Below, piece after piece: positions 845 through 30,687 of a stretch of 32,569 nucleotides of DNA; within the stretch, counting starts at the first letter, position 1, and the number at the start of each line of letters is the position of its first letter. Origin of the DNA: an uncultured virus (IMG/VR IMGVR_UViG_2049941000_000863). Its lineage: Duplodnaviria > Heunggongvirae > Uroviricota > Caudoviricetes. The notes under the pieces are model-generated. The model had not been told where the DNA came from. It saw only the letters and a list, made by a program, of their open reading frames with translations, and did no database searches. Both the position numbers and the translations under genes were made by a program. The DNA is taken from the IMG/VR virus record IMGVR_UViG_2049941000_000863; one strand, given 5' to 3'.

Positions 845-1797
845 NNNNNNNNNNNNNNNNNNNNNNNNNNNNNNNNNNNNNNNNNNNNNNNNNNNNNNNN
901 NNNNNNNNNNNNNNNNNNNNNNNNNNNNNNNNNNNNNNNNNNNNNNNNNNNNNNNNNNNNNNNNNNNNNNNNNNNNNNNNNNNNNNNNNNNNNNNNNNNN
1001 NNNNNNNNNNNNNNNNNNNNNNNNNNNNNNNNNNNNNNNNNNNNNNNNNNNNNNNNNNNNNNNNNNNNNNNNNNNNNNNNNNNNNNNNNNNNNNNNNNNN
1101 NNNNNNNNNNNNNNNNNNNNNNNNNNNNNNNNNNNNNNNNNNNNNNNNNNNNNNNNNNNNNNNNNNNNNNNNNNNNNNNNNNNNNNNNNNNNNNNNNNNN
1201 NNNNNNNNNNNNNNNNNNNNNNNNNNNNNNNNNNNNNNNNNNNNNNNNNNNNNNNNNNNNNNNNNNNNNNNNNNNNNNNNNNNNNNNNNNNNNNNNNNNN
1301 NNNNNNNNNNNNNNNNNNNNNNNNNNNNNNNNNNNNNNNNNNNNNNNNNNNNNNNNNNNNNNNNNNNNNNNNNNNNNNNNNNNNNNNNNNNNNNNNNNNN
1401 NNNNNNNNNNNNNNNNNNNNNNNNNNNNNNNNNNNNNNNNNNNNNNNNNNNNNNNNNNNNNNNNNNNNNNNNNNNNNNNNNNNNNNNNNNNNNNNNNNNN
1501 NNNNNNNNNNNNNNNNNNNNNNNNNNNNNNNNNNNNNNNNNNNNNNNNNNNNNNNNNNNNNNNNNNNNNNNNNNNNNNNNNNNNNNNNNNNNNNNNNNNN
1601 NNNNNNNNNNNNNNNNNNNNNNNNNNNNNNNNNNNNNNNNNNNNNNNNNNNNNNNNNNNNNNNNNNNNNNNNNNNNNNNNNNNNNNNNNNNNNNNNNNNN
1701 NNNNNNNNNNNNNNNNNNNNNNNNNNNNNNNNNNNNNNNNNNNNNNNNNNNNNNNNNNNNNNNNNNNNNNNNNNNNNNNNNNNNNNNNNNNNNNNNN

Positions 1798-4700
1798 TTC
1801 TTTCCCAGGGCGATTATGATGCGAAGAAAGACAAACTGCACGAAGCCTATCCAGAGGCGAATGTCGTGGAGATGCAGGACTACAAGGCTGGTGAGGAAAT
1901 CGGGGATTCCGACTTCTTCATCAACATCCCTGGCACGACTGAACCGACACAGATAAGTGCAAAGGACTTTGCCGCGAAGCAGGACAAGATTTATGCGGCA
2001 TATCCCGATGTGCAGGTGTCTCGTATCCGTCAAGTGGACTATTATGGAGACAAACTGGGCGAAATCTATGACAGGGAGTCCGAACTGAAAGCAGAGTTGG
2101 AAGGACTTCCTGCCGAAACCAACGCAGCGGATCTCCGCAACATGGCCGACGAAGACCTTGTTGTCGAGGCTGGCCGCGTTACGAAGGAGAAGGCCGGCCT
2201 TGCCCGTCGTGCGGAAATCAACAAGGAACTCGACCAACTCTATCGCATGAGGGAGGAAAACCCTGCATGGAAGCGGTACTGGGCGAGCGTGAACAACGGC
2301 ATTGACGAGGACTACGCACGCATCGACAAGATGCAGTCAGACCTGCGAAAGGATAACAAGGAGGCGGCACGGAATTATGAGACGGCCAACCGTCTTGCCA
2401 TTACTGGCCCACAAGGAATGGGACTTGCGGCGGTCAAAATGTTGGAATCCGATCCCGAATACAACAGTTCGATGGAAAGCCTTTCCGCTGCCCGTCTTAT
2501 GCTGAATGACGCGAAGAAAGCGGCCACTGCACCGTCCAGGTATGGCGGTGACGACAAAGGCGCGTGGAGCGACTTTTGGCGTGGTATCAAGGACGGAGCG
2601 CCAGAAGCCTTGTCTGAGGCTCAACTCGTTCGTGCCGGCCTTAACATGCACCTTGTAGATGCAATCAAGAAGATTCAGAACGCGGAAGGGAAAGATGTAA
2701 GCATCCTCGACCTGGTAAAGGACGACAAGTTCAACGACATCGGTTATCTCAACGCTGGCGAAAAGGAACTCGTCAAGGCTTTCGTGAAGAAGGCCGAGGT
2801 GGAGGGCGGTCGTGGAGATANNNNNNNNNNTATCAGTCCGGCCAGAGTGCCGTGCAGTCGCTCGGATTCATGCTGGACTTCATGATGGTCGGAGGTGCAG
2901 GCGAGAAGGCGGCTGAAGCGGTCGCCGGAAACCTTGTCAAGTCTGCTGGTCGGAACGAAATTGCCAAGATAGGAGCGGAAACCCTGTATGGTACGGTAAA
3001 GGCCCTTGCCATGACTCCGCTGATGCCGTCCACCTATAACAACCTCATGAACAACATACTCCAGTTCAACGATGCGGGCGGTGTGGATTTGTCTGGCAAA
3101 GCCGTGGCTCGCGCAATCGGAGATGTTGTCATCGAGAACATATCCGAGACCGTCGGCAGCGTCCCAATGGAACTGGCAGGTATTCCTCTTTCCCGTGTCA
3201 AGTTCCCAGACTGGGCGAAGGCCATGCGGAACTCCGCGGTCGCATCTGCTTTGAGACAGGCCGGCTATCACGGCTTTATCGAGGAAATGGTTGAGGAATG
3301 GACGGGCAACGCCCTTCGCGTCATGACAGGCGTGGATAAGANNNNNNNNNNTACCAGACCGCTACGGCTCCCATGAATGTCAAGATGCAGACCGCGAAGG
3401 AGGCCGGTGCCGCCAGGACGCAGGGGGTCGTTACGGGAATCAATGTGGACCTTCACGAACGCCAACTCGAAGAACAGGCCGCGGCTCGGCGCGAAAGTGC
3501 CGCGGCAAGACGGGAGAACGCGGCAATCACCGCGGCACGATACGGACTGCGGAAGAACGACAAGGGAGAGTACGAAATCGATCCGAACTCTCCTGTCACG
3601 CAGGCGGCTCTCCGTGCTGGCTCTGGTGGGGGAAGTGGTGCAAGCCGGAATACCCTGTTCTATTACGATGCGAACGGACAACTAACGCCGGTCTATATGA
3701 CGGCCACGGAATATGACAAGTTCGTGGAACAGTCCTACGCATCGGTCAAGGACAACGAGGACTTCCAGAAGGCGTACCGGAGGGCAGCGACCGACATCGA
3801 GCGAAAGAGCATCATCTACGACTTTGCTACGCAGGTCCCGGAGCGTCGTTCCGTTTTGAGCCAGTACGGAACACGGCCCGAAAACTATGTGGAAAGACCA
3901 GAAACCGCGTCACCCGATACGAACACGCCCGGTTACGCGACCGGCAATAAGAAATCTACGCAGGACTTAATCAACAGCCTATTCAGTANNNNNNNNNNAT
4001 TGACGCTCGCGCAATATACCGCCGCATCCCGTTCTCTCAAAAAAGCCGGGACTTCCTTGGAGAAAGCGCTTGAAGTTATCAGCATGGACAAGTTGAGCAC
4101 TGAGGCAAAGAAAGCCCTTCTCAATACGGATTCGTTCAAGACTCCGGAGGAACTGGCACACCACCTTGCCGATGTCTATCAGCAGATCGTCGAGAACGGT
4201 GGCGATGCTGCCACGGCATACAAAGCCGTCATGGACTATGTTCAGGCCGATTCCCAGTACAAGGTCATGACAGGCATCTTCGAGGAGCAGAAGGACATCG
4301 ACCGCGGTCGCCGGCTGACGGAACTGAACACCCAGATGGGGAACGCGAACTGGCATCATGCAGCGAAGAACGGCGTGAGTTATGTACGCATCATCACGGA
4401 CGCTGACGGCAACGAGCGTTTTGTCACAGCGCGGGACGAAAACGGGTTGGCCCTTGTGGACAGGCAGGGGAACAAGACCTTTCTTTCCACGGAGGAACTT
4501 GCGGTCGGTATAGCAGACGGCTCTCTTACCGACAATGGCGAACAGGAGTTGTTCGATTACCTGGACAAGCAGACGGACATCAAGAAGAAGGCAGACGACC
4601 AGCAGCGCGTGGAGTTGGAGCAATTGCAGAACGAGACGGAACTGATGCGCCGCGCCCAACCGCAGACAGTAGTGAACATCGGCACGGTTGAAAACCCCGT

Positions 4701-7700
4701 CGAGGGAACGATTCTGCAATACGATGGCGGTCTATTCATCGTACAGGGTTCTGACGGTTCCGTGCACCANNNNNNNNNNTCCGTTTGAGACATCGACTGG
4801 CCTTCGTTATCAGGTGGACTACAATGAGAACGGGCATACGGTTCTTGACTTCTTCACGGAAGACCAGTTGAACTCCATTATCGGCATGTCCGAGCAGACA
4901 CCTGCCGTTGATGTTGCCGAGCAGACCGAGCCGGTTCCCGCCGACGATACTCCCCGTGACTTCCGCGGGAATCCGCTCCCGATGCGCACCAACAAAAAGA
5001 CCGGCCAGCAGACCGTGGACCAGAACGCCCTGTGGAACAAAGACCCGGAGGCGTGGGCGCGTTGGAACGACTCGAACCCCAGCCAGCGCGTGACGAGCAA
5101 GGAACGGATTGAATACACCCTTACCGAACTCAACAAGGAAATCGAGAAGGATACAAAGGCCGTCCAGAAAGCCGCGCTGAAAGGCATCGACGAAGACGAG
5201 ATGGACAACATGGAAGCCGCCCTGGGTGCGAAACTCGACAGGCGTGAACTCCTGCAATCCATTCTGAACAAATATAACCTGCCTGCCGAGGCCGGTCAGA
5301 CCGTGGCGGGCGAGCAGCGAAAGGCCGCTGCAGAACAGGTCAAGCAAGAGCAGAAGGCTGGTTTCCCTGGCATCCAGCAAAGATGGAACGAGACACCGAA
5401 GATTGTCNNNNNNNNNNGGTGCACCAGACGAGATCCGTCTGCCGAACGGGGAGACTGTCACCGGTAACTATGTGCTTACCGAGGCGTTTGCCCCTACTCC
5501 ATCCCATAACCCGGCCAACGGATTTTCCATGACGGAGGGATTCCCTGTGGACGAGAACGGAAAGACCGTGAATGACCGCGACTACGAGCGCGACAGGGCA
5601 GCGCAGCAGTCCGTCCTGGATAAAGCGGCCAAATACGACCAGCGTGCCCTGCAAACGCCTGTAATTGTTTCCGCTGACGGCGTTGTCCTATCCGGTAACG
5701 ACCGCACTATGGCAAGCCAGATTGCGGCAGCGCAGAATACCGACGGCGCGTATTTGGAATATCTCGCCAAGTATTCGCAGAAGTACGGCTTTANNNNNNN
5801 NNNNNNNNNNNNNNNNNNNNNNNNNNNNNNNNNNNNNNNNNNNNNNNNNNNNNNNNNNNNNNNNNNNNNNNNNNNNNNNNNNNNNNNNNNNNNNNNNNNN
5901 NNNNNNNNNNNNNNNNNNNNNNNNNNNNNNNNNNNNNNNNNNNNNNNNNNNNNNNNNNNNNNNNNNNNNNNNNNNNNNNNNNNNNNNNNNNNNNNNNNNN
6001 NNNNNNNNNNNATCCCAGTCCAAGACTGAAAAGGCCGTCAAAGCGGGGAAGACGCTCAATGCTGAATCACTGGCCTCCCTCGCAACGCTTGTGGACAGGT
6101 ACGACGACATCAACGCCCTGTACAACAGCAAGGAAGGAGTGAACGAACTACTGGACATCCTTCTTTCTGCAGAAGTCATCTCGCAGGAGCAGGTTGCGGC
6201 ACTCCGTGACGGCGATACCCTGTCCGGTGCGGGAATGGACTTGCTCGAAAGCACGCTTATCGGTGCGGCCCTGGACGAGGAAGCCGTGCGCGTTGCCATG
6301 TCCGACAAGAGCATCCGCAAGTCCGTTGTGTCCGCTATCTCGCAGATCCTTGTCGGCAACACCTTGAACGACTACATCCTCCGCACGGAACTGACCGACG
6401 CCATCACCCTTGTCGCCAACGGCAAGGCCCTTGGCGAAATCAAGTTCGGTGAAAGCGTGCAGGACTACATCCGCCAGCAGCACCTGTTCATGGACGATGT
6501 GGTCGCCGAGGCATCCGTCCAACTCCTTGCAGATGCAATCAACGACCGCAAGACTTCATTCCTGAAAAAAGTGCTATCTTTGTACAACAGGGATGCGGTG
6601 GAGTCGGCAAACGGCCAGATGAGCCTGCTCACGGGCGATGTCCTGACGAGGGAGGCCATTCTTCGCAACATCTTAGAATTCCTTGGATATGACACCAGAA
6701 TCATCTACGACACTTCCGAACGGGCAGCGGAACAACGAGAGCCCGCAGAACCGGCAGGCCCAGCAGACCGGCCAGTCGCCGCAGCAGAAACAGAACAAAC
6801 TCCTGCTCCTGTTCAAGGCGGTGAGGGAAGCCAGGTAAATCGCGCCCAGTACGATCGCGAGGAAGTCGCGGTCATCCTCGAACAGGGTAATGTCGGTGAG
6901 TACAACCTTACCGACTACATGACTGACGAGGAAGTTGCCGAGTTCGTCCGTCGCTGGGAGTCTTTCCTGCCGTTCAACGATGCGGTTGGCGAGGCATACA
7001 CCCGTCTCGATGCTGACCTTCATTCATCGGACAAGAAGAAAAAGAAAGCAGCGCAGGCCGAAATAGACCGGCTGGAAATGGCGCAGCAGGAAGCACATGC
7101 CCCGGTACAGGAGTATGTGGACGAACTCATTGAAAAGTATGGACAACTCGCAGAAGAAGAAATCGATGAAGTTGCCGAGGAGGAACTTGTCGATGAGGAA
7201 TACCAGGAGGATGCCGATGTAGAGGAAATCCCCGAAGATGAGGACGATGAACCGGAACCCACCAAGGGGAAAAAGGGGAAGAACGGAAAAGGAAAGGGGA
7301 CGAAAAAGGAGGAAAAGCCGTATGTCGTTAAGGGTAATGCTTCCGTGCTGACGGTAGCCAAGCAGACATACACCCAGGATGAACTCGAAGAATTTATCTA
7401 CAACGGCAGTTTCACCGAATACCAGAGCAAAAAGACAGGAGAAAAGATTCAGACCCTCTCGATAGGCGCACTTAGTCATGGGTCATTCAAGAATGATAGC
7501 GTCACAATCTGGAAATGGATGCCCGGTGCCGAACACACTGACCGGCGTGAGGCGACCGTTACGACTGACTATCTTCTCAAATACTTCAAGGCGAACAAGT
7601 TCAAGTGCCTCAGCAAAGACAAGTCGCGAAAGAACAAGCACGGATACTGGATCAACAGACATGGCGTCTGCATGAATCCTATCCGTATCGAACTCCCTTC

Positions 7701-10700
7701 AAGTAAGAAGGGATGGGCCAATTTTTCGTATGCGTACTTCTGGCAGGACGATAAGGACAAGTGGCATGCTGGCGGTTCCACATCATACGGGACTGGTGGC
7801 GGTTCGCTCGGAATGGATAGAACCGAACACAATACTAAGTCGGAGGCTATCAAGTCCGTCATTGAGGCACTGAAATATGAGCAGCAGCGACATACGGAAA
7901 AGAACAGGCAGACCAAAGACCGCGACAACCTGTTATCTACGCTCCAGTCCAAAACCCTTCCACAGGCTTTACTGGAAGAAGGAGTGGTGAACACCGTAAT
8001 GCGCGTAGATTTGTCCGATGCCGGCATTGAGGGAACACAGGGAGACCTGTTCGGCGGCGAGGNNNNNNNNNNAGGAAAGTCCGAAGAAGGGAAGTAAGGT
8101 CAAGAAAAAGACCACCAAGCGCAAGGCCCAGGCTGGCGTGGACCTGTTCGGTGGAGAAGTAGTCGAGGCACCAGAAGAATCCGACGAGGAAAGCGAGCCG
8201 CGCTTCACGCTTGAAGATGAAGAAGGCACGCCCGGCAACTTCCATTGGATTGCTGAAAGGGTCTGCACGAATCCGCAGATCATCACCATGCCCGGTGCGG
8301 ACAGGACAAGTTCCGTCCCGAAAGTGGCACTTGCTGAAAAAGAAGGAAAATGGTATGAATCCACCTACATCACGGCTGACGGAGGTGTCGGTTCGTCCTG
8401 GGGGAGCGTGTTACCGACCTTCAAGGCAAGGNNNNNNNNNNGTAAGGATGCGATAAATCACGCCATCGAGTTCATGCGGTTCATCCTCAATGACCGCGCA
8501 AAGAAGGCAGCGCCATACGGCGAGACCTTCACCGAGACGAAGGACCTCATTGACTACATCGTCAAGGTGGAACTGCCGAAAGAGGACGCGAAAAAGGAGG
8601 AAAGCGCCGAGGATGCGCTCGGATTTGTCAAAAACGCCCTCGACAACTTTGCCCAAAACGGGAACTATGCAAGGGTAGTGCACACCTTGGAATCATACCA
8701 GGACTTCTTCGGGGAAGATGTGGCGCAGGAAATTGACACCATTCTTTCCGACCTTCGGAAGAACGGCATCAGCAAGGAATCCAAGGATGAAATGGTACGC
8801 CGGACTGCCGAACTCTATAACCGGCTTGTCAATCCGCAAGCGGAGACCGAATCCGTTGAGGAACAAACCGAACCCGCTCCTGCATACGGCTCGCAGAACA
8901 CCATCATCACGACCGACAAGTATGAGGAACTGAAAAAGCGGATGAGAGAGAAACTGGGCCAACTCAATGCAGGGTTTGACCCGGAAGTGTTCTTCATCGG
9001 CGCGCAGATGGCCGCTTACCATGTTGAGGCCGGTGCCCGTAAGTTCGTGGACTTCGCCCAGCGCATGATTAAAGACCTGGGCGACGCTATCCGTCCCTAT
9101 CTGAAAGCCATCTACAACGGCGCTCGCGACCTTCCTGGCATGGAGCCGTTCAAGGGCGACATGGATTCCGCGTCAGCCGTGGACGGTATTGATGTGAACT
9201 CTATCGGAATTGAACAACCCGTTACGCAACCCAAGGAGGCATCACAACCGGAGCCTGTCGCTCCAGTCCAGCAAGTCGATGTGAACTCCCTGTTTGGTGC
9301 TGTCAATGACCTTGCACGCGGCAAGCGGAACGAGGTAAGAACTTCCGACTTCGCGACCCCTGTGAGTGTGGAAGAAACTACCGAAAACAGTAGGAAAACT
9401 CCCGAAGTTTCAGTAACTTTGCAAGAGAGCGAAGTGGGTGTCGATGCGTCCGATTATCGGACTTACATGACCGCCCAGGCGCGTGAGTTCTTTGCCAACG
9501 AAAACCCGGAATTTGCAAAGCCTGAACTGGCCTTCATTACGGAAGCGTCGGAGGACAATGTGGTTATTCCTGTCACGGAACTGGAGAAACTGCAGGAGGT
9601 CATTGATGCGGAGAAAGCCATCAAGGATGTTGGTGTCCGTGCGAAGGAGGAAACGGGAAGTGAATCACTCGTCCTGACTGACGAAGAAGTACAGGCGTAT
9701 TCAGACCGCCTTCTTGCCGACGACAACGGCAGTTATGCAGGGAAAAACGATTACTCCGGTCCTGTCGCAAGGGAAAAGAAAGCGTTCATCGTCATTGGCC
9801 GTCCGGCAGGAGGAAAGAGCAGCGTATTCGCAGATCCGTTGTCCAAGCAGCACAAGGCACGCATCATTGACAGCGACATCGTGAAGCCCTGGCTCCGAAA
9901 CTACAATGGCGGTGTCGGTGCCAACTATGTGAACGCTGCATCCGCAAAGGTCGCTGACGAGGCGATTATCAAGGCGGCGGAGCGTGGCGAGAACATCGTC
10001 ATCCCCAAGATTGGAGGCGCAAGTATTATCAATGAGATTGCCCTGCCTTTACGGGTCGCCGGTTACTCGGTCGAACTGTGCTTTAACGATGTGACCGAGG
10101 AAGCATCCATCATGCGGGCCGCGTCCAGATTTGCGCGGACTGGCCGGTATTTGAGCCTGCAGTACCTGAAAAGCATCGGCGATAAACCGAATAGCACATT
10201 CCGAAAGTTTGCTGACAAGAGCATAAAAGAATCAGTCTATGAACTATCTGAAAGACAAGTACAAGAGTTACGAAGAAGGATTAGCCGCCTATCTGGAATG
10301 GGAGGAGAGCATGCTGGAGCCCTACGAGAAACCGGCAACGGAGCAGGACAAGGCAATGTGGACGAAATCCTTCAAGCGGCTCTGGGAGAAAGAGGAACTG
10401 CATCCCAGGACGAACGGCTCTTTGCATCAGCCGTCTGGAAAAGNNNNNNNNNNNNNNNNNNNNNNNNNNNNNNNNNNNNNNNNNNNNNNNNNNNNNNNNN
10501 NNNNNNNNNNNNNATTTGGGAATCCGCGAGCGGGGAGCCAATCCCCGGAACTGAACAGGAAAACAAAGAATCCGACAAAGAATCGTTGGTTAAAGGGATG
10601 AAGGATAGACTTCATGCCTTTACGGAACCCGTTCAGTCTGTGGAAGCCTCTGGCCAGACCCTGGGCGAACTGGGCAAGTACACCCATACAAAGACCGGAC

Positions 10701-13700
10701 AGGAGATGTCCATTGTCCGTCTGACGGGCGACAGGCTGACCAAAGACGAGTTCAAGCAACTCAAATCCCGTGCAAAGGAACTTGGCGGCTACTATTCGTC
10801 TTATGGCGGTGCCAAGGGATTCCTGTTCGAGAACGAGGAAGACGCAATCAAGTTCAACACAATAAACGCACCTGAAAATGCCGAACAACAAACCGATGTC
10901 GAGACAGCAGCAGATACAGCAACTATTGTCAGCGAAGCGGCATCTATTGCAGTCGAAGCGCAATCTCTTGCGGAAGCAGAGGGCACAGGAGAGCAAGCAG
11001 CCGCAGAAGTAGTCACCCGTATAGACAACGCCCTGGAGTCCATCGACGACCAACTCGCCCTGCTCGGATACTACAAGGCTGACCAGACCGAACCGTTCCA
11101 TGAGAGTTACGGCTACATGAAGTCTGCCGAGAAGAAGGCCGTGAAGGATGCAGACAAGTTGGCTAAAAGACTGGCTGCGGATTTGGGACTCAATGTCGGT
11201 CGGAAGCAACTCGCCAAGGCTAATATCGCGCCTGCCGGTGGTGATGTGACCTTCCGGCTCCCTCTCAATGAGGGGCGTGAACTCTATGTGGACATCCACA
11301 TGGAACCGGATGCAGATGATAGTCTCATGATCCGCGGACTGGCCGTAGGTATTCAGGGACTTGACATCATGTATCGTGTCGAGAATCCCTCCGCTACCGG
11401 AGCCGAAAAATACGGACGGAATTACTACACCAGTTATAATGCAACCTATGACGAAATCCTCCGTGGTGTCCGGAATGCCGCTCGCGATTATCTGCCGGAG
11501 TCACAAGTCCAAACAGGTCCTGTCGATGTACTGCAAGTCGCTAAAGAACAGGCCGANNNNNNNNNNATGAGGTAAACACCGACGCGCCTGCCGCCAGGGT
11601 CAAGCCGACCGAGGTGAACGGATACAGGATTGGGGAGAAGGTTCAGTACAGGCCCAGCCAGGGAGACCGTTCCACCCAGGAGGCTACCATTTACGATTTC
11701 GAGAATGACGGACGGCCCGTGCTTGATGCCGGCCTCGCTCCAGTTCTCTATGAGGTTGTAGAGTGGGAGCAGATAAGCAAGATTGAAGAACCTGTAAACG
11801 ATACAGACAATGACCGTAGTGAACAACCACAAGGAGTACCAGCAGGCACTGGAAGCCAAGGCGAAAGCGCTGGGCAAGAAAGTGTCCGACCTGACCGAGG
11901 CGGAGAAGGAGGACGCGAGGGAGACCTTCATGGCCGCTCACGGGCTCTGCGACCTCGATATGATGATTCCGTAAAGCGGAATACACGCAACAATCGCGTT
12001 GCGAAGGGCGAGGTCGTCTATCCCAAGACACCTGCCGCACGATTCAAGGCAAATATCGCCGCCATCCGTCTGCTGAAAGAATTGCAGGATAGCGGAAAGA
12101 ACGCGACCAAGGAACAAATGGCCGTGCTCCGTCAATATACCGGCTGGGGTGGTCTTGGCGGTTACTTCAACAACGAATACTCTGCGGAACACCGTGAACT
12201 CAAATCCTTGCTTACCGATGAGGAAATGGAGGCCGCGGCCCTTTCCATCAACACGGCATACTACACCCCTGTCGAGGTCATTGACAACATGTGGGAGGTA
12301 GCAAAGCGTCTCGGTTTCCAGGGCGGCAATATCCTCGAAGGGTCTGCTGGAACTGGTGCTATCCTTGCCTCCATGCCGAAAAACATCAGCGAGCGTAGCG
12401 CAATCACCGCCGTCGAATTGGACAACATCACGGGCGGCATCCTCGGTCTCCTGTACCCTGACGCAACGGTGCATGTGCAGGGATTCCAGGAAACGGACAT
12501 CCCCAATGGAAGCATAGACCTTGCCATTACCAATGTTCCGTTCGGGGACATCAATGTCTATGATTCCAAGGAAAAGGACATCACGAGGAAGTTCGGAGGC
12601 AAGATCCACGACTTCTGCATCGCGAAGAATATCCGCAAACTCGCCCCAGGCGGTCTCGGCATCTTCATCTCAACCCGTGGCACGCTGGATAACAGCAGCA
12701 AGGCACTTCGCCAGTGGATTGTGAACGAGGGAGAGGCCGATGTAATCGGAGCGTTCCGTCTGAACAATGAGACCTTCGAGGGAACCGGAGCAACTTCCGA
12801 CATCATCGTAGTCCGCAAGCGCGTCAATGGCAAGGTGTCTCCCAACGCGATTGATGTGACCGACACGCAGATCACCCGTCGCGAGGATTATGTGCTTGAC
12901 GATAGGGAATGGAATCCCAAGACCCGCGCCTATGAGTACAAGACCGGAAAGGCGGCGATGGAACTCAATACCTATTTCGTTGAGCACCCGGAGAACATGG
13001 GCGGCGAAATGGGATTCGGATTCGAGCACAAGGATACCTATCGCCCCGGAAGTTCCGCGCTCTGGCCGTCCGAGAAGATTGACCAGAACAAGCGTCTTGC
13101 GAAATGGGCGAAGCAGTTCTCGTCCATGCAAGTTGAGGAGCAGGCCGTCACCGCTCCGGCCGAAACCGAAGTGGAGGAATCCAATGCGACCAAGGAAGGA
13201 CAACTTGTCACCAACTCCAAGGGAGAGATATGTATCTCCCGCAGCGGAAAGGCGATTCCCTTGGGCGTTAATGCCCAGAAAGTGAAGGGATATTCCAAGG
13301 CGCAGGTGCTTTCTGACTACAACGCGCTGAAAACAGCCATCAACGAAGTCCTGGACTATCAGTTGAAGAATGAGTCGGACGAAGGATTGAAGCCTCTCCT
13401 GTCGAAACTGAACAGGGCGTACGACACCTTTGCGCACCGCTATTCCAGACTGAACCGCAACACGGCCATTTCGTTCCTTCGCAACGATGTGGACTTCCCG
13501 GCTATCGCCGCCGTGGAGGACTACAAGGAGAAGAAAACCATTGACGGCAAGGTGTTATATCCCGTACANNNNNNNNNNATGTGAAGAAAACCAGCATCTT
13601 CTCCGGTCGTGTCCTTGGTGCGAAGCGCGTCCCGACCCCGAAGGACGCGAAGGACGGCGTTATCGTGTCCATGAACCAGTTCGGTCGGATTGATGTACCA

Positions 13701-16700
13701 TTCATCGCAGACGCGCTCAACAAGGACGAGGATACCGTGCGTCAGGAAATCCTCGATAGCGGTCTTGGATTCGAGAATCCGCTGACCGGCGGCATCGAGG
13801 TTGANNNNNNNNNNNNNNNNNNNNNNNNNNNNNNNNNNNNNNNNNNNNNNNNNNNNNNNNNNNNNNNNNNNNNNNNNNNNNNNNNNNNNNNNNNNNNNNN
13901 NNNNNNNNNNNNNNNNNNNNNNNNNNNNNNNNNNNNNNNNNNNNNNNNNNNNNNNNNNNNNNNNNNNNNNNNNNNNNNNNNNNNNNNNNNNNNNNNNNNN
14001 NNNNNNNNNNNNNNNNNNNNNNNNNNNNNNNNNNNNNNNNNNNNNNNNNNNNNNNNNNNNNNNNNNNNNNNNNNNNNNNNNNNNNNNNNNNNNNNNNNNN
14101 NNNNNNNNNNNNNNNNNNNNNNNNNNNNNNNNNNNNNNNNNNNNNNNNNNNNNNNNNNNNNNNNNNNNNNNNNNNNNNNNNNNNNNNNNNNNNNNNNNNN
14201 NNNNNNNNNNNNNNNNNNNNNNNNNNNNNNNNNNNNNNNNNNNNGAACCGCGCTGCCGGTGTTCGCAGTAATGTGCTGAACATCGACAAGCGAGGGCATG
14301 AACTCATGATCGCGGCCATGAACAATAGTTCCGTCGTGTTCTCGCGTTCCTACAAGGACCCCGTGACGGGCCAGACCATCACGGAACATGACAAGGAGGC
14401 AACGCAGGCCGCTACCGCGAAGATGTCCGAGATGAGAGACGATTTCAAGGAATGGGCGCGCGCAAAGATGCTGGACGAACCGGAACTTGCCCAGCGTATC
14501 GGGAAGGTGTACAACGACACTTTCAACGCGATTGTCCCGAAAGAAATCAAGGACACATTCCTCCCTGCTCATTTCGAGGGCATGGCCACCAAACTGAACA
14601 ACGGCAAGGAACTCCACCTGCGCGAACATCAGTCCAAGGCGGTTATCCGTGGCACGACCGAGCCGCTTATGCTGGCTCACGAAGTCGGAACCGGAAAGAC
14701 CTTCACGCTCATAGCGACCGCGATGGAGATGCGCCGGCTCGGTACGGCAAAGAAACCCATGATTGTCGTGCAGAACGCGACACTGGGCCAGTTTGTCAGT
14801 TCAGCGAAGGAACTCTATCCGAACGCTAAGGTTCTAACCATTTCCGAAGCAGACCGCACCGTTGAGGGGCGCACAGCCTTCTATGCAAAAATCAAGTACA
14901 ACGACTGGGACATGATTATCGTCCCGCAGTCGGTGTTCGAGATGATTCCGGATAGCGAGGAACGCCAGCGTGCGTTCATCCAGGAGAAGATTGACGAGAA
15001 GATGTTCATCCTCGAACAGGCAAAGCAGGCCAATAATGCCAGTGCTGAGCGTCAGTTGAAGAAGGAACTGGAAGACCTGCAGTATGAATACCAGTATGGC
15101 GAGAAGCCGCCGAAGAAGGGCAAGGCAGGTAAGAAAGATGCGAAGAAGGAAGCCGAGGCGAAAGTCAATGCCGCTGCAAGGGCGCAGAAACAACTCGACC
15201 GCAGGACGGACGATGTGTCCGACTTCGACGACATGGGCATTGATGCACTGCTTGTCGATGAGGCCCATTCCTACAAGCACCTTGGATTCTCGACCGCCAT
15301 GCAGCGCGGAGTTAAAGGCGTGGATTCTACGGGCTCCAAGAAATCTGCCGGCGTATATCTCAAGACTCGCGCTGTCTTTGATAAGGCCGGCTGGAAGAAT
15401 GTAATCTTTGCGACAGGTACGCCTATATCCAACACCGCAGCGGAGATCTGGACCTTCATGAAGTACCTCATGCCGGACGACATGATGCGTCAGAACCATA
15501 TCTACTACTTCGATGATTTCGTCCGCAACTTCGGTAACATCGCGCAAAGCCTGGAGTTCACGACAAGTGGCAAGTTCAAGGAGAACACCAGATTTGCCTC
15601 TTACACCAACCTGCCCGAACTTATCCGCATCTGGTGGTCGGTTTGCGATACTGTCCGTTCCGAGGATGCCGTGGCCGAGGGTGGCGAGAAACTGGAGGAC
15701 AAGCAACCGAAGATGGAAAACTGGACGGGCGCGGATGGGCGCGAGCATGTGAACCAGGCCCGTGACATCTATCTGCCTCAGTCCGGTTCGCTTGTGGACA
15801 TCATGAACTATGTCCGTCAGCACCTCGAAGAGTACGAAAAAATGTCCGGTAAGGAGAAGAAGGAGAACAGCCATATCCCGCTTACCATGTTCGGCAGGGC
15901 ANNNNNNNNNNGAGGAAGGCGAGTTCGACAATCCTGTGGCCGTCCTTTCCGGAAGTCAGTATGCGCTGCTGAAATCGCAGGCCGAGCGCGAACTGCGTAA
16001 ACTCCGCAACAAGAAGGAGCAGTACAGGCAGGACCAGATTTACATCGAGCGCACACTGAAAGACAATAACAACCGGATAGAATACGACAAGAAACTCATT
16101 GACGAGGCAAAGGCGAACCTTGCCAAGGTAAAGAGCACTTTCCCGGACGGCAGCGTGAAGGAAATCACAATCTCTGGCCGTAAGGCGAAGGGTGCGGAGC
16201 AGATTGGGGAGGCTATCAAGGAAAAGATTACCGGGCCGCTTCGCGAACTGGTGGAGCGTCGTAGGAACGATCGCGGATTCACGACCGAGGACAAGCATTA
16301 TACCATGACCTTCGACGGCGTTTCCGTTGATGTGAAGGTTGGTATAGACCGCACTCAGGAGTGGAACGACAAGACCTACCAGTACAAGCCTGTCATGCGA
16401 ACCCGCGTAGAGTATTCCTGCCCGTCCATCGGGCTTGTAGGGCACTATATCATGGGCGGCATGAACGGAATCAAAGACATTCCACAGGAATTTATCGCTA
16501 CATTCGCATCCGGGAAATACTTTGAGCAGGCCGTCACCAACCTGGAAAATACAATCTCCCGTCTCAATGCGGACAACGACTTGATGCTGCAGCGTCGCGG
16601 TAAGCCTTTCGCCGACGAGGACAAACTTCAGAAGCAGGAGGAAGTCGTCAAGGACTACACCGAGAAGATGAAGGCTGAAATGGCCGAAAAGGAAAAGAAG

Positions 16701-19700
16701 TACGCTGAAATGGCAAATCATGGCACACCCAACGAAATGGCCGGTTTGAGTCAGCGGCTTGAAGGTGTAGTCATGGACGAGGACGAGGACGGTGAAGGAG
16801 AGACGCACAATAGCGAAGTAAATAGGAATGCGCCGAAGTTGAATATGAATGATCCTACCGTAGTCGCACAGGCCGTTTCTTCCGTGAACAGACTTGCAAA
16901 GCGACTTGGACTTCGTGTCGTATTCGATAGCGGACTGCAAAGCAAGGGTGCGTACACCGAAGGCACCGACTTCGTGCGAATCAATCTTGCCAACTGCGAA
17001 TCCGTGGACGATGCCGTTGAAACCCTGCTCCATGAAGGTGTGGCCCATTTTGGACTGCGCGAAATGCTCGGCGAACAGGGGATGAAGGACTTCATCGCAG
17101 ATGTCCTGGAAAAGGCTGCTCCAAGCATCCGTGCGAAGATTCAGGACATGGCCGAAGAAAACGACTGGACCCTGGAATACGCAGCCGAGGAATCCGATGA
17201 GGAAATGGAGGCCGNNNNNNNNNNNNNNNNNNNNNNNNNNNNNNNNNNNNNNNNNNNNNNNNNNNNNNNNNNNNNNNNNNNNNNNNNNNNNNNNNNNNNN
17301 NNNNNNNNNNNNNNNNNNNNNNNNNNNNNNNNNNNNNNNNNNNNNNNNNNNNNNNNNNNNNNNNNNNNNNNNNNNNNNNNNNNNNNNNNNNNNNNNNNNN
17401 NNNNNNNNNNNNNNNNNNNNNNNNNNNNNNNNNNNNNNNNNCATTGCAGGACTGGCGCAAAAGACCGACTACACAAAGGCCGAGCGTGGCCTGTGGCGCA
17501 GGATACTTGAAGCCGTCCGCAATCTCATTTCCACCATTACGGGCAGGGATACCTACATCACGGATGATACTATCCGAGAAATGCTTGTCGCCTCTTACGC
17601 CCGTCTGGAGGAAGAAGCGGCCAATACTTTCGAGAATAGCCTTAAGAGACAAATCGAAGGAACGCTCCCGGCAGGCTATGTTCATAAACTTGGCCTCCCT
17701 GGTGCCATTCTCCGTAGTGTAGGCGTGCCGAACATGCCTATCAATCTTGCCGCATCCCGTCTTGCCGAAAAAGCGAATAATCACGATTACACACTCGATG
17801 AGTTAAGTGGCCTTGTAGATGCAATCAATAATCCAATTGCGGTTTTTGCAAGGGGTAAGGGCGATGATGTGGCGAGAGACCTTATCGTTGAGATAGAACA
17901 CAATGGGAAAAACTTTGTCGTCGGCCTGTATCTGAATCCCGTGGTTGGCGGTCAGCGACTGGAGATTAACAGTATCAGGACTGTTTATCCGAAGGATACG
18001 GACGAGTGGGTGCGCTGGATCAAGTATGGCCGGGCAAAGTATCTGGACAAAGAAAGAATCAAGGCCATCATTGCCGAACAGCGAATGACTTTCGCTGACG
18101 TCAGCAGTGATGACCTGAATGNNNNNNNNNNAATATAATTGATTTTTTTGAGAATCCAAATACTTCCGGCATTTATGATGAAGGAGTTACGCATTATCGA
18201 CTCCGCACTAAACCTGCTCCCAAGAAAACCGGCATAGGCTATAAGGTGTTCTATCGTGGAAAAGACGGGAAACTCTATCCTCCTATGGTCGCCAATCCCA
18301 ATGGCGAGGCAACACCCGTTGGAGTATGGCTTGATGCAGATGCGGCACCTGTGGCTGGTCAGAGCAAAACGGGCCGTCCACAAGTCAAGGCAGGCGGCAA
18401 AGGAACGCAGGGTGGAAGTGGTACGCTCGCATATCGTCCTGGCTGGCATCTTGGCGAAATCCCTTACGCTATCCAGTTCAACAGGATTAACCCTGCGAAT
18501 GGTCAGAAAGAACTGTTCCCGCGTGACTTTGTTTGGGCCGAGGTTGAATATGCTGCCGACAACGACTATCAGAAGGACGCTGAGGCCGAAGGCATCAATG
18601 CAAACGGTAAGTTCCAGCACTCCCTTGCCGGATTGAAACGGGTCCCGGAAGATGGTTTTTACCGATACCGCACTAACCCGAATCCGGAAACCGACCCCTG
18701 GATTATCACCGGAGCCATGAAGGTCAATCGCATCCTCTCGAACGATGAAGTGGACGAGATTGTCCGTGCTGCCGGGCGTGAACCGCAATTACGCGAGGGG
18801 GATGTGGTACGAAACCGCGTCGCTGGCGTGGACGGCTTCATTTCCAATGCGGAGGCTGCGGTCAATGCAATCCAGATGGAGAAGGCTACTCCCCAGCAGT
18901 GGTTGAAGATGATTGAGGGCAAGGGCGGTCTCAAAGCCGGAGAGGACAAGTGGATTGGCCTGTCCGATTGGCTCGAAGCCTCAGACCGCAAGACGCTCAC
19001 CAAGCAGGAGGTCCTGGAATATATCAATCAGAACAAGATTCAGATTGATGATGTGGCCTACACTGATGCGGACAATATCCCGATGGGCGGCGATAATGAG
19101 TGGAATCAGATAGTTGAGCAGCGTTATGGACGCGATGTTTTCTCGGCTTTCCGTTTCTATCCTGGGGACGGAGGAACCTCCACGGAGTTCGTGGACGAGG
19201 ATGTGGCTGCGGATGTTTATCGCAGACTCCAACATGATTACGACTATGACTACCAGATTGTGACTCCAAACGAAGGACAGCCGTATTCTCGGCTCGATAT
19301 GTATTGGATGAAACAGATAGCAGAAAGGATTGCTGATTATGGAGACGGCCAGATGCGCATCAAATATGGTAGAACCATTCATCCTACCAGGATTACTTAT
19401 ACTACGGATGGCCTTTCCAACAAGCGCGAGATCGCGCTGACCGTCCCGACGATTGAGCCGTGGAATCAGCAAGACAATATCCATTTCGGCGATGCTGGTG
19501 AGGGGCGTGCTATCGCGTGGGCAAGGTTCGGTGATGCCTTCGTGGACGAAGAAGTTGTCGTGAAACCCGAAGATAAGGCCGAACTTGAACGCCTGAATAA
19601 GAAAGTCAAGGATGCTTTCGATAAGGCAGACAAGGAACCTTCGGACGAAAACCGTGATGCTTTCTTAGCCGCAAGGGACGAAAGGGACGCTTTTGCTGGA

Positions 19701-22700
19701 CGGACTAATGCCCGTGGTGGGATCAGACGGCGCAGGGTGCTTTTCATCNNNNNNNNNNAAATCGCAAAGAAGCACGGTGTGGAAGTCGAAACGCTCGACG
19801 ATGTGGCGACATCGGAAGAAAAACAACGAGCCGCGGATTACAATAATCGAATTTCCGAGTTAAGGAAACAAGGTGGTGTTCCTGCCGCACCCTTTGAGAA
19901 GAACTGGCACGAACTGGCCATGAAGCGGATGCTCCGTCTTGCTGCCGAGGAAGGATACGACTATGTGGCATGGACTACCGGCAACCAGCAGTCTGAAAGA
20001 TACAATATCGGGGGCGTTGTCGAAGAGATTGGGAGAATGAAAGATAGGAACCTCAATGAAAAGCAGTTCATAGTCTTTCTGAAAGGTAGAGACCATTCAA
20101 AATACATTACCACGGACGATAATGGAAATGTCGTATCTACGACTGTAGCAGACTTCAATGGGAAGAACCTATCAGAGATAGTCGGGAAGGAACTTTCCGT
20201 CAAGATGCTCTCAATGAAAGAAGGCGATTTCATCCGCGGTGATAATCTCCGTATAGGTGGACAGGGCATGAGGGGTTTCTATGACGAGATCCTGCCGCGC
20301 TTTATGAACAAGTACGGCAAAAAATGGGGTGTGTCCACCAATGATTTGCTTGTTGGCCTTAACCGTGGACTTTTCGTTGAGGCTCATGCCGTCAGGGTCA
20401 CTCCGGAAATGCGTGAATCCGTCATGCAGGGCCAGATGATGTTCCGTTTCATCGGTGAAAAGGGAGCGGACAGGGCAGATGCAGTAAGCCCCATTGAGCG
20501 CCGTATGGAAACGGTCGAAGTGCCGAGGAAGGGTCTTGCTAAACTTTTCGGCAGCAAGAAGTTCAAGACGGTTGAAACTGCGGTCACGCGGATTGACAAC
20601 CTCAATATCGCAAAGAAGATGCAGGCAGACGGGATAAGACCGGAGGACATCAAACGGGCAACCGGGTGGGAAGTTGGCAGGGACGGAAAATGGAGATACG
20701 AGGAAAGCGATGTGTCCATAAATGAAGACTTCCTCCAACACATACAGGGAAAGAGCCTTGACGAACTGTCCAGCGAGACATATCCGCTCGGCCAGATTTT
20801 GAAAGACGGGCAAGCGAAGGATATGCTTTTCACCGAGTATCCCGAACTCTCCGAAATCAAGGTGTCTTTCTATAACGATTCCTGGTTCGATTTTTTCAAC
20901 TTGACAAGGGGATATTATAACCCCGTCACCAAGAAACTGATGCTTAACCCCAAGGGGGCAGGTTGGCTATTTACCAAGAAGCCGGATGCGAAGGAACTGT
21001 CCAGCACAATGCTCCACGAGATACAACATGTGATACAACATATCGAGGGATTCGCACAGGGCGGCAACACTTCAATCGTGGACAAGTATGGTAATATAGC
21101 GGAACTGAAGTCAAGGCAGGAGCAGATAGCGCAAAGAATTGAGGAAATCCTTAACTCCGATGACAAGTATCGCGAACTCAACGAACGATATGAGCGAATG
21201 AAGGACGAGGAAAGCGATGGGTATAAGGAGCATCAAAAAAGGTGGAACGATGCTGTCGCAAAGTTCGAGGCCGAGGATGAGGAATACCAAAAGAGGTGGA
21301 ATGAGACGGAAGATAGGATTGCCGAGGTAAGGAAGGCAAGGCTCGCAAAGAAAATGAGCGATGAAGATGCGACGAAGGAACTCCAAAAACAAGCCGACAT
21401 AAGGTGGGAACTTCTCAAGAACAAACCACGCTATCCAANNNNNNNNNNNNNNNNNNNNNNNNNNNNNNNNNNNNNNNNNNNNNNNNNNNNNNNNNNNNNN
21501 NNNNNNNNNNNNNNNNNNNNNNNNNNNNNNNNNNNNNNNNNNNNNNNNNNNNNNNNNNNNNNNNNNNNNNNNNNNNNNNNNNNNNNNNNNNNNNNNNNNN
21601 NNNNNNNNNNNNNNNNNNNNNNNNNNNNNNNNNNNNNNNNNNNNNNNNNNNNNNNNNNNNNNNNNNNNNNNNNNNNNNNNNNNNNNNNNNNNNNNNNNNN
21701 NNNNNNNNNNNNNNNNNNNNNNNNNNNNNNNNNNNNNNNNNNNNNNNNNNNNNNNNNNNNNNNNNNNNNNNNNNNNNNNNNNNNNNNNNNNNNNNNNNNN
21801 NNNNNNNNNNNNNNNNNNNNNNNNNNNNNNNNNNNNNNNNNNNNNNNNNNNNNNNNNNNNNNNNNNNNNNNNNNNNNNNTGTCGCGACAATGACGATGTG
21901 GTGCGCACCGTCCTTCACGAAGGGGTCGGCCACAACGGACTGCGCAGGCTCATCGGTAACGAGAATATGCGAGACTTCTGCCTCGACTTGTTCATCAGCC
22001 TGCCGAAAGCCGTGCGTGCCAAGATTGCGAACGATGCGGTAACGAAGTATGGCGGTAATGTCGTGGAATCAGTGGAGCGTTTTGCCGCAAACGATGTTAT
22101 CCGCGAGGTGGGAAAGGAAGCCATGTTCGAGTCCACCGAGGAATGGTTGGCCGAAACTTCCGAAACAATCGACTATAAAAACTATCGCAGGAATGTGTGG
22201 GACATCATCCGTGATGCCCTGCGCAGGGTGCTGGCGAAAGTCGGAATCAATGTCCCCTTATCCATCCGCGATGTGAAATGGCTGATGGTCCAGTCCGCTA
22301 TGGCGAACCATGAGACGGACCCGACGGTCGAGGCAAGACGGCAGGTAGTAGCCAACGCGCTCGGATTTACGCTGAAACAACAGTCCGAAAAATACGAGGC
22401 CGTACAACTTTCCAGAAACAGGATCGCAGAAGAAACCCTGGCACCTGCGGCTCGGATATATAACAAGGATGTGCTGTACTGGTTCAACCGCCTACATGAG
22501 ACATGGGTGGACAAAGACAATGCCGTCCACCAACTTGTGAACGCAATCGAGAAGGCGACCGGAAAGGCTGCAAAGGCTTTCGAGGACATCCGTCTCGCGC
22601 TGAACCAACAGAGTTCCAAGGGTCTTGCCGCAATCGAGAAGTTCGAGCGAGAGTGCTGGGCACCCATGCAGGAGGCCATCCGTTCACTCATGAATGAAAA

Positions 22701-28890: not shown

Positions 28891-29514
28891 ATGATCGTCC
28901 TCATCGACAACGGGCATGGCGTGGAAACGCGCGGCAAGGGTTCGCCGGATGCACTGAAAGGGCAGACTGGTTCGACCCTGTATTTCCGCGAGTATTCGTG
29001 GACGCGCAAGGTCTCGCAGGCTTGTTGCGATGTCCTCCAGGCGCGTGGATTACAGGCGTGGCTCCTTGTCCCGGAGGAAAATGACATCCCGCTTTCAGTC
29101 CGCACAAANNNNNNNNNNTTCTGCCGGAAATACGGCAAGGACAATGTGCTGCTCGTGTCAGTCCATAACAACGCGGCTGGAGACGGGAGCCGGTGGATGA
29201 ACGCAAGGGGTTGGTCCATCTATACCAGTCCGGGCGTTACGAAATCAGACTATCTCGCAGAGGCCATTTATCAGGTCGCGAAAAAAGAGTTTTTGAGTCC
29301 GCTCACCGTCCGAAAGAAATGGGATAAGTATCTGGAGCGAGACTTTGAGGAAAACTTCTATCTCCTTACGAATACCCTATGTCCGGCTGTCCTTGTGGAG
29401 AACTTCTTCCAGGACAACAAACTCGATGTCCGTTTCCTTCTCTCAGACAGGGGTATTGGGTCGTGCATCCATGTCATAACGCAGGGGATAGAGGACTATA
29501 TCAAAAACAAATAG
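28891..29514 (+). CDS. Endolysin, N-acetylmuramoyl-L-alanine amidase (Amidase_3)
   Basis: Zn-amidase motifs IDNGHG, FRE, VSVHNNA and PAVLVENFF; no signal peptide. Confidence 0.93.
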   Translation: MIVLIDNGHGVETRGKGSPDALKGQTGSTLYFREYSWTRKVSQACCDVLQARGLQAWLLVPEENDIPLSVRTXXXXFCRKYGKDNVLLVSVHNNAAGDGSRWMNARGWSIYTSPGVTKSDYLAEAIYQVAKKEFLSPLTVRKKWDKYLERDFEENFYLLTNTLCPAVLVENFFQDNKLDVRFLLSDRGIGSCIHVITQGIEDYIKNK

Positions 29515-30663: not shown

Positions 30664-30687
30664 CAACATAAAGTGCACTTTTTCCGT

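Follow-up and report, generated by a model that had tools for sequence, protein, structure and literature searches.

We use a combination of comparative, compositional and structural evidence to study a short open reading frame (ORF) that lies, shifted by one base, inside a giant gene of an uncultured Caudoviricetes virus. The window, by which we mean the whole stretch of DNA analysed, is 32,569 nucleotides of the IMG/VR record IMGVR_UViG_2049941000_000863. Its giant gene encodes a polyvalent virion protein with a zeta-like kinase among its domains, and directly after the core of this kinase an ATG opens 70 codons in the +1 frame, which we call nested gene 1. A first-pass annotation had read this arrangement as a toxin-antitoxin pair absorbed into a virion protein, with a candidate antitoxin overprinted in the toxin's own C-terminal part. 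Because of its conservation, the phase of its variability, its codon usage and the predicted fold and family of its product, we take the nested ORF to be, very probably, a genuine overlapping gene. That its product inhibits the adjoining kinase is a tentative proposal, which we weigh further below. The features on which the argument depends are, in window coordinates:

1798..25644, plus strand: readable part of the giant polyvalent-protein gene, its start lying under the run of N at 845-1797
9449..10558, plus strand: main-frame zeta-like kinase module (358 residues in the virus record G001; a 70-N run interrupts the window copy)
9770..10225, plus strand: kinase core, matching Pfam Zeta_toxin (PF06414), residues 585-736 of the 8018-11575 reading
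10219..10238, plus strand: leader of nested gene 1, A-rich and without a Shine-Dalgarno core, with a +1-frame TAA at 10224-10226, four codons before the ATG
10239..10451, plus strand: nested gene 1, read in the +1 frame, with 70 codons and a TAG stop (G001 40361-40149, minus strand), its end coordinate nominal in that the final three codons are hidden by the N run and counted from G001 bases
10239..10403, plus strand: predicted folded domain of nested gene 1, about 55 residues with helices at 3-7, 11-24 and 35-49
10298..10409, plus strand: main-frame linker, predicted disordered (module residues ~284-320, with low values of the predicted local distance difference test, pLDDT), on DNA that also encodes the nested protein's folded part

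The window is a scaffold with 28 runs of N (for example 2821-2830, 5794-6011, 10444-10513 and 31324-31333), and the frame switches between its long ORFs nearly all fall at these runs. We mapped its N-free segments onto the gap-free phage record G001 (65,311 bases with direct terminal repeats, estimated complete), to which 100% of the window's sampled words are common. Where the window has 70, 10, 218 and 10 N, G001 has 34, 195, 109 and 100 real bases, and the segments 31334-31466 and 31477-32569 map onto it in swapped order. The lengths of the N runs are thus wrong and create false frame changes, which make the giant gene, and a portal gene further downstream, look like many abutting ORFs. An alternative genetic code, prompted by these abutting ORFs, was dropped because the frame changes coincide with N runs of wrong length. 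In G001 the giant gene is a single open frame of 7,946 codons (24556-48396, minus strand, first Met at codon 5), and the ORF at 8018-11575 of the window is therefore an internal piece of it. Along the gene, Pfam finds ddrB-ParB, Zeta_toxin, ResIII/SNF2/Helicase_C, MuF_C, LPD23 and LPD38, a domain make-up that is that of a polyvalent protein of the type described by Iyer et al. 2017.

The ATG of nested gene 1 stands at 10239-10241, 13 bases past the end of the Pfam kinase match. From it the +1 frame reads MNYLKDKYKSYEEGLAAYLEWEES..., over DNA that the main frame reads as ...GDKPNSTFRKFADKSIKESVYELSERQVQELRRRISRLSGMGGEHAGALRETGNGAGQG...LFASAVWK; the strings quoted in the first-pass annotation are all present in the sequence. 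Its suspicion that the stop was hidden by the 70-N gap proved right, since G001 has 34 bases there, with a TAG after 70 codons. Past this TAG the main frame of G001 runs on in phase into a conserved motif, and the nested gene, which overlaps module residues 264-335, sits wholly within the larger one. The TAT at 10238-10240 is indeed a main-frame codon, and the suggested change of TAT to TAC would silently abolish the nested ATG.

Relatives of the module were found at 30 loci, 12 on viral contigs and 18 in species-representative genomes. When these (L006-L035) are taken together with the window, an ATG-started +1 ORF of 49-84 codons follows the kinase core in 29 of the 31 zeta modules. The two exceptions are L014, which has no nested ORF, and L033, which is cut by the end of its contig 16 codons past a GGAGG-ATG. 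The pairing of toxin and nested gene had been expected to fall if the +1 ORF were not conserved among homologues that retain the zeta domain, and the result came out the opposite way. Across 23 mapped loci, the homologous segment holds 0-2 stops in the +1 frame; the +2 frame of the same segment holds 5-9 stops at 17 of these loci and 1-4 at the remaining six.

The start of the nested ORF is also conserved. In a survey of start signals at 19 loci, the ATG lies at the same aligned place across loci, and its A and T come from a main-frame codon that is NAT in all of them (Tyr, Asn, His or Asp), so that only the base outside the ATG varies. A stop in the +1 frame lies 0-5 codons upstream of the ATG at 17 of the 19 loci, directly adjoining it in L006. 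The motif ahead of the ATG is GGAGG at seven loci, of the AGGTGA type at six and GGAG at one, and is missing at five, this phage included.

Which of the two frames is the more constrained can be read from the phase of variability. The alignment used for this was built from the main-frame protein, a choice expected to bias it towards that frame. Variability in the kinase core peaks at the main-frame third position (0.55-0.70, versus 0.19-0.42 for the first position). Over the overlap the peak moves to the main-frame first position (0.47-0.61), equivalent to the third of the +1 frame, and the main-frame third position drops to 0.33-0.54 (0.33-0.46 in five of seven windows); past the overlap, the usual pattern returns. 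A second peptide family found at the same site has a weaker shift of the same kind, with the main-frame first position leading in five of seven overlap windows. Identity between homologues can be tabulated for the same two regions: the kinase core has 0.63 for the main frame and 0.29 for the +1 frame, with 76 stops in 1,464 +1 codons, and the values for the first half of the overlap are 0.39 (main frame) and 0.50 (+1 frame), with no +1 stop in 248 codons.

Codon usage points to the same frame. In this phage, nested gene 1 scores +21.4 in its own frame, compared with 21.7 +/- 8.2 for main-frame windows elsewhere, and the main frame at the overlap scores -15.5, below all 772 background windows. 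The background for the +1 frame is -44.2 +/- 14.7, and a single one of the 772 windows reaches the score of the nested frame, namely that of a second nested gene described below. Substitutions between close pairs lean the same way: 88 changes are silent solely in the +1 frame and 47 solely in the main frame, where the possible single changes number 304 and 525, respectively.

We now consider the protein that this frame would encode. An AlphaFold2 model built from 30 sequences has a mean pLDDT of 85.0. Its blocks over residues 1-50 reach 92-96, and 52 residues score at least 90; the 15 residues beyond the folded domain are predicted to form a disordered tail, and it is this tail that overlaps the conserved main-frame hairpin. 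A profile of the nested peptide, searched against 1.84 billion proteins, finds 22 relatives: 13 small proteins (57-77 residues), 8 longer proteins that carry it as an in-frame C-terminal domain (P0038, P0040, P0046, P0047, P0049, P0050, P0053 and, with two copies, P0051) and one weak partial row (P0052). A further search added P0054-P0059, which likewise carry the domain at their end. Where the nested versions of the domain begin with Met, the fusions have Lys, Gly, Asp, Asn or Phe, and this replacement indicates that the nested Met is a start codon and not a structural residue. When the domain-ending proteins are compared by BLAST with the zeta loci, they match only nested +1 ORFs or the helical region upstream of the kinase module.

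The nested peptide belongs to no Pfam or PHROG family, and Pfam at E-values up to 1 offers no family for more than one member. A profile of 11 peptides, run against all chains of the PDB at E up to 10, returns seven unrelated chains, none of them epsilon or PezA. Fold searches with the domain give a best E of 3.4 in the PDB (Foldseek), a best Z of 4.3 among 48,161 chains (VIA-align) and a best E of 2.6 in BFVD, all from search types that resolve small helical domains poorly, and the ESM Atlas gave no usable feature match. The nested domain is, as modelled, a new family of helical domains of about 55 residues. At least three peptide sequence families occupy the nested site (hhalign gives a probability of 24% between family A and family B). 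Scans of viral contigs with P0049, P0038, P0053, P0057 and a five-sequence subgroup alignment confirmed no locus, and a metagenome scan with an 11-sequence alignment gave three loci only. Among 401 genomes of the order of one host-candidate metagenome-assembled genome (MAG), the domain occurs in the centre genome only, and collections of isolated phages and plasmids hold no match to the region, the kinase, the nested peptide, P0049 or P0057.

The other partner, the kinase, had been called zeta-like, and the Pfam match, the alignment to zeta and the predicted fold all bear this out. The Zeta_toxin match has an E-value of 1.7e-9 and 37.8 bits, compared with a curated cut-off of 22.3, and the same domain is found in the G001 reading. 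An HMMER profile of the module matches zeta of 1gvn_B over residues 34-152 (E 5.3e-4); the Walker A motif GRPAGGKSS of the module aligns with GQPGSGKTS of zeta, and the second Asp of its IDSD motif aligns with the catalytic Asp67. An alignment of 22 modules has a mean column identity of 50%, and its invariant columns are G117, P119, A120, G122, K123, S124, D141, S142 and D143. The AlphaFold2 model of the module (mean pLDDT 86.2, predicted template modelling score, pTM, 0.84) consists of N-terminal helices and a P-loop core, then a helix over residues 268-282, a stretch from about 284 to 320 that is poorly predicted and a beta-hairpin over 327-346, with pLDDT blocks of 51, 39, 56 and 58 over residues 281-320. 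Compared by Foldseek, the model is closest to 3q8x_D (E 1.6e-7, TM score by target 0.57), 1gvn_B (3.8e-7) and the PezT chains of 2p5t (1e-5 to 3e-5), and the zeta and PezT structures all outrank polynucleotide kinases. Searching 5.8 billion proteins with the region yields 29 relatives, all of them long (776-1,989 residues) and with differing sets of domains.

Substrate recognition is another matter. In zeta, Asp67 is catalytic (its equivalent in PezT is Asp66), and Thr118 and Arg120 contact UDP-N-acetylglucosamine (UNAG), according to the account in PMC3062530. In the HMMER alignment, EGTGR of zeta lies opposite the profile consensus PRIGG (PKIGG in this phage), which puts Ile in place of Thr118 and an invariant Gly in place of Arg120; this assignment comes from one profile alignment whose register may be one residue off. 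With both contacts replaced, the domain may be no UNAG kinase and may lack toxicity, and toxicity by the zeta mechanism is uncertain. Judged by sequence and model, the kinase is zeta-like in fold and catalytic core and lacks the two UNAG-contacting residues of zeta.

A comparison with epsilon/zeta and PezA/PezT (1GVN, 3Q8X, 2P5T) shows what is shared and what is not. The likeness lies in the Zeta_toxin match, the Walker A motif, the catalytic Asp and the best structural matches, and also in a small, helical, acidic protein (predicted here) encoded beside the kinase. However, the kinase here is one domain of a protein of about 7,900 residues, whereas theirs is a free toxin; the small gene here lies after the kinase core, in the same gene and another frame, whereas theirs lies upstream in a two-gene operon; zeta's Thr118 and Arg120 are Ile and Gly here; and the sequence and fold searches found no match that would place the nested protein in the epsilon/PezA family.

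Nested gene 1 does not appear to be alone. Two further ORFs of the same kind are:

11810..11974, plus strand: nested gene 2 in the +1 frame, 54 codons, in a low-complexity linker just upstream of the methylase/helicase module
L036 3400-3747 (phage record G002), plus strand: 115-codon +1 ORF in the linker before the methylase module

Nested gene 2 is the sole further region that the codon-usage scan flags in the giant gene, with a score of +22.3 in the +1 frame and -13.2 in the main frame. G003, G004 and G005 have ATG-started +1 ORFs of 47 codons at the corresponding site, some 120 bases past nested gene 1, and the products of these ORFs are 40-43% identical to that of nested gene 2. This product belongs to no known family and has no detectable homology to that of nested gene 1 (hhalign with family A, 2%). 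In G002, the closest relative, the 115-codon ORF replaces nested gene 2 in the linker, and the protein it encodes matches the first 122 residues of P0051 at 49% identity. If this N-terminal domain is called X and that of nested gene 1 is called A, P0051 is built as X-A-X-A; G002 encodes both of them as nested +1 ORFs, and the two nested proteins are thus connected through a fusion. A reading of domain X (P0051, G002) as a helix-turn-helix, which would give a PezA-like layout, was made by eye and rejected, as Pfam and PDB sequence searches gave it no support. The codon-usage scan flags 8 of 203 windows in L036, all within the two nested ORFs, and three regions in L039, one of them a further candidate. 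Taken together, nested +1 genes are, on this sequence evidence, a recurrent feature of the linkers of giant genes. The third region of L039, at about nucleotides 271-500 of an open frame of 2,721 codons, scores +18 to +25 in the +1 frame and 0 to +5 in the main frame; its +1 reading starts MNRIEQAQNWIALMSQEEMKE and may be a further nested gene.

How might such a gene work? In the mechanism we propose, ribosomes would initiate at the nested ATG on the mRNA of the giant polyvalent virion-protein gene, many relatives having a Shine-Dalgarno sequence ahead of it and this phage an A-rich leader instead. The product would be a free protein of 70 residues, a compact helical domain of about 55 residues with a floppy tail. 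The large protein would read the overlap one base out of phase, as a helix and then a disordered linker between the kinase core and the C-terminal hairpin. In the producing cell, the free domain would bind the adjoining kinase module and keep it silent until the polyvalent protein is packaged and ejected. The nested protein would then be the nested counterpart of the immunity ORFs proposed to follow MuF and other polymorphic toxin domains.

The precedent for this comes from the MuF toxins of temperate phages, where 89.4% of 191 MuF toxin genes precede a small candidate immunity ORF (Jamet et al. 2017, PMC5576092). Phages also have zeta-toxin-like kinases fused to MuF, for which a weakening of the cell wall at DNA entry has been suggested (Iyer et al. 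2017, PMC5512222). Like the MuF toxins, the giant protein carries a MuF_C domain and joins a head-associated MuF-type protein to toxin-like domains, and a small ORF without known domains comes right after the toxin-like domain (nested in 29 of the 31 modules, free in L014). The difference is that MuF toxins have a C-terminal toxin and a separate downstream gene, while here the kinase is an internal domain and the small ORF is a +1 ORF in a linker. By analogy, the arrangement resembles a MuF toxin-immunity pair folded into a single gene.

We put the probability that the nested product inhibits the adjoining kinase at roughly 30%, which makes it the single most likely specific mechanism. In its favour, the nested ORF stays next to the kinase core even as the architecture of the polyvalent protein changes, and a family-C-like peptide adjoins the module whether the linker precedes or follows the hairpin (L031 versus L028). 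The step is further supported by the presence of multiple peptide families at the one site, by the MuF precedent and by L014. In this locus a protein of 598 residues ends in the zeta-like module, and a free acidic ORF of 61 codons (2407-2592, plus strand) begins 79 bases past its stop, the classical layout of toxin followed by small ORF. The hidden Markov model of family C does not match this free ORF.

Several observations weigh against the inhibitor step. No zeta domain was detected in at least 14 proteins that end in the nested domain, as checked by a Pfam scan for P0038, P0040, P0046, P0047, P0049, P0050, P0051 and P0053 and by a precomputed listing, with no Pfam domain, for P0054-P0059. 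The X-A-X-A order of P0051, made of two parts that are both nested +1 ORFs in G002, raises the possibility that the nested proteins act with each other and not with the kinase. Neither a sequence nor a fold likeness to epsilon or PezA was found for the domain (profile against PDB, Pfam, Foldseek and VIA-align). The kinase has Ile and Gly where zeta contacts UNAG. To these can be added that nested gene 2 does not adjoin the kinase module in this phage and that the module of L014 has no nested ORF at all.

All but the last two of these points favour an explanation in which the nested gene is real and its product has nothing to do with silencing the kinase, serving instead as an adaptor or docking module, as a partner of other nested proteins, or as a host-takeover or anti-defence factor. 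The occurrence of nested +1 genes in other linkers (11810-11974, the versions in G003-G005 and the third region in L039) favours it as well. The site would then be explained by a disordered linker that tolerates a second frame, together with gene fusion across small genes. What this explanation accounts for less well is the persistence of the site: a +1 ORF follows the core in 29 of the 31 modules, with at least three peptide families and with differing other domains, and the family-C-like peptide adjoins the module in both linker positions. Furthermore, the codon-usage scan finds nested genes in only two linkers of the 7,946-codon gene. Taken together, we give this range of roles a little less than an even chance.

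Two remaining alternatives deny the gene itself, and it is well to state that we consider an independently translated nested gene, encoding a folded protein, to be real with good probability. The first of them, which we think unlikely, is that the +1 ORF is untranslated and is kept open by composition, by constraints on the main-frame linker or by an RNA element. Four points weigh against the reality of the gene, the first of them also in favour of this alternative. The giant gene has 13 ATG-started +1 ORFs of at least 70 codons compared with a mean of 11 in synonymous-codon shuffles of the same gene, and 26 of at least 50 codons compared with 22 expected; such ORFs are common, and we have rejected ORF length as coding evidence on the count of 13 observed versus 11 expected. 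This phage lacks a Shine-Dalgarno sequence at the nested start. The loci are interrelated, with four near-duplicate pairs (L022/L025, L024/L029, L026/L027 and L021/L032), so locus counts are not counts of independent events. Finally, in the closest pairs the changes silent in one frame only are about equal in the two classes (2:2, 3:3, 1:1 and 6:8), which implies that both frames are constrained. However, an untranslated ORF leaves unexplained that the main frame is the less conserved one at the overlap (0.39 versus 0.50), that variability is highest at the third position of the +1 frame, and that codon usage is native in the +1 frame and foreign in the main frame, the +1 score being reached by one background window in 772, which is nested gene 2. 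Nor would it account for a peptide family that also exists as in-frame domains elsewhere and has a predicted fold with pLDDT above 90 over residues 1-50.

The second, that programmed ribosomal frameshifting reaches the +1 segment and cuts the polyvalent protein short at about 2,750 residues, with the small domain at its end, fits the domain's occurrence as the in-frame C-terminus of other proteins but is very improbable, and was rejected on the upstream +1 stops, which at 17 of 19 loci lie 0-5 codons before the ATG (adjoining it in L006) and leave next to no room for a shift site, while nested versions start with Met where in-frame ones have Lys, Gly, Asp, Asn or Phe and a GGAGG or AGGTGA-type motif precedes the ATG at 13 of the 19 loci.

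Returning to the overlapping gene, we can ask which of the two frames came first. The native codon usage of the nested frame and the domain's existence in its own right suggest a small gene older than the linker, which would have been overprinted on it. We therefore lean, with some reserve, towards a small gene that is the older reading and was swallowed at a gene fusion: neighbouring genes would have been fused into the giant gene by reading across the small gene in another frame, and a similar swallowing seems to have occurred in other linkers. The first-pass annotation had the nested ORF overprinted on the toxin's C-terminal part, and here the direction is probably the reverse, as it is the linker of the large protein that appears to be overprinted on the small gene. 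Its idea of an absorption into a virion protein fares better; applied to the small gene, it fits the native +1 and foreign main-frame codon usage and the occurrence of the domain elsewhere, both in-frame and free-standing. A broader proposal is that the linkers are small genes swallowed at gene fusions, which survived in the +1 frame and make up a hidden set of proteins translated from the one mRNA, so that each enzymatic warhead, the zeta-like kinase first, carries its own neutraliser or handling factor. This we regard as doubtful; if it were true, warhead and safety catch would stay together in inheritance, shuffling and expression.

Precedents for a gene embedded out of frame in a larger one are phage lambda's Rz1, which lies in Rz, and comS of Bacillus subtilis, which lies in srfA. 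As in these, the nested gene is a short ORF on the same strand, wholly inside the larger gene, in a shifted frame and with its own start. It differs from them in that the host gene encodes a giant virion protein of many domains, with the overlap placed in a linker between domains, in that this one host gene has several nested genes, and in that the nested domain is also found in-frame elsewhere. The polyvalent proteins of PMC5512222 share with the giant protein the joining of many domains in one polypeptide; the text of that paper (Iyer et al. 2017) contains neither "overlapping" nor "frameshift", and genes nested in linkers are not described in it. In the titles and abstracts returned by full-text literature searches, there is no description of genes nested in polyvalent-protein genes and none of an antitoxin nested in its own toxin gene.

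The giant genes for polyvalent virion proteins rank among the largest genes of phage genomes, and comparative, compositional and structural evidence points to at least three families of nested genes in their linkers. Since gene callers drop ORFs that lie within longer ones, annotations would miss an entire class of small phage proteins. If the nested product is an inhibitor, it would answer how phages safely make proteins rich in toxin domains in cells that are needed alive for making virions, and it would represent a new genetic solution in which immunity is encoded inside the toxin gene; the pair would then be inseparable in domain shuffling. If it is no inhibitor, the locus would exemplify a gene fusion that reads through an intervening gene out of frame and leaves this older gene working, and it would still define a new domain family of about 55 residues.

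A few variants of the zeta locus and the neighbouring genes complete the description. L030 encodes a stand-alone zeta-like protein of 321 residues (1366-2331, plus strand) of the same clade, on a contig of an Oscillospiraceae MAG, with a +1 ORF of 60-73 codons nested in its C-terminal tail; judged by eye, its neighbours look like part of an integrase, a repressor of the XRE type and a gene for an ImmA-like peptidase. The distant zeta modules of L017, L034 and L035 (34-35% identity) have ATG-started +1 ORFs of 55-57 codons that begin at a TAT-GAC pair of codons after the core, and those of L034 and L035 both have ...PTEQELRDDWGGL near their end. Downstream of the giant gene in the window lie, on the plus strand, a gene for an N-acetylmuramoyl-L-alanine amidase (28891-29514) and a P22-like portal gene (30673-32567), the latter broken up by scaffold gaps.

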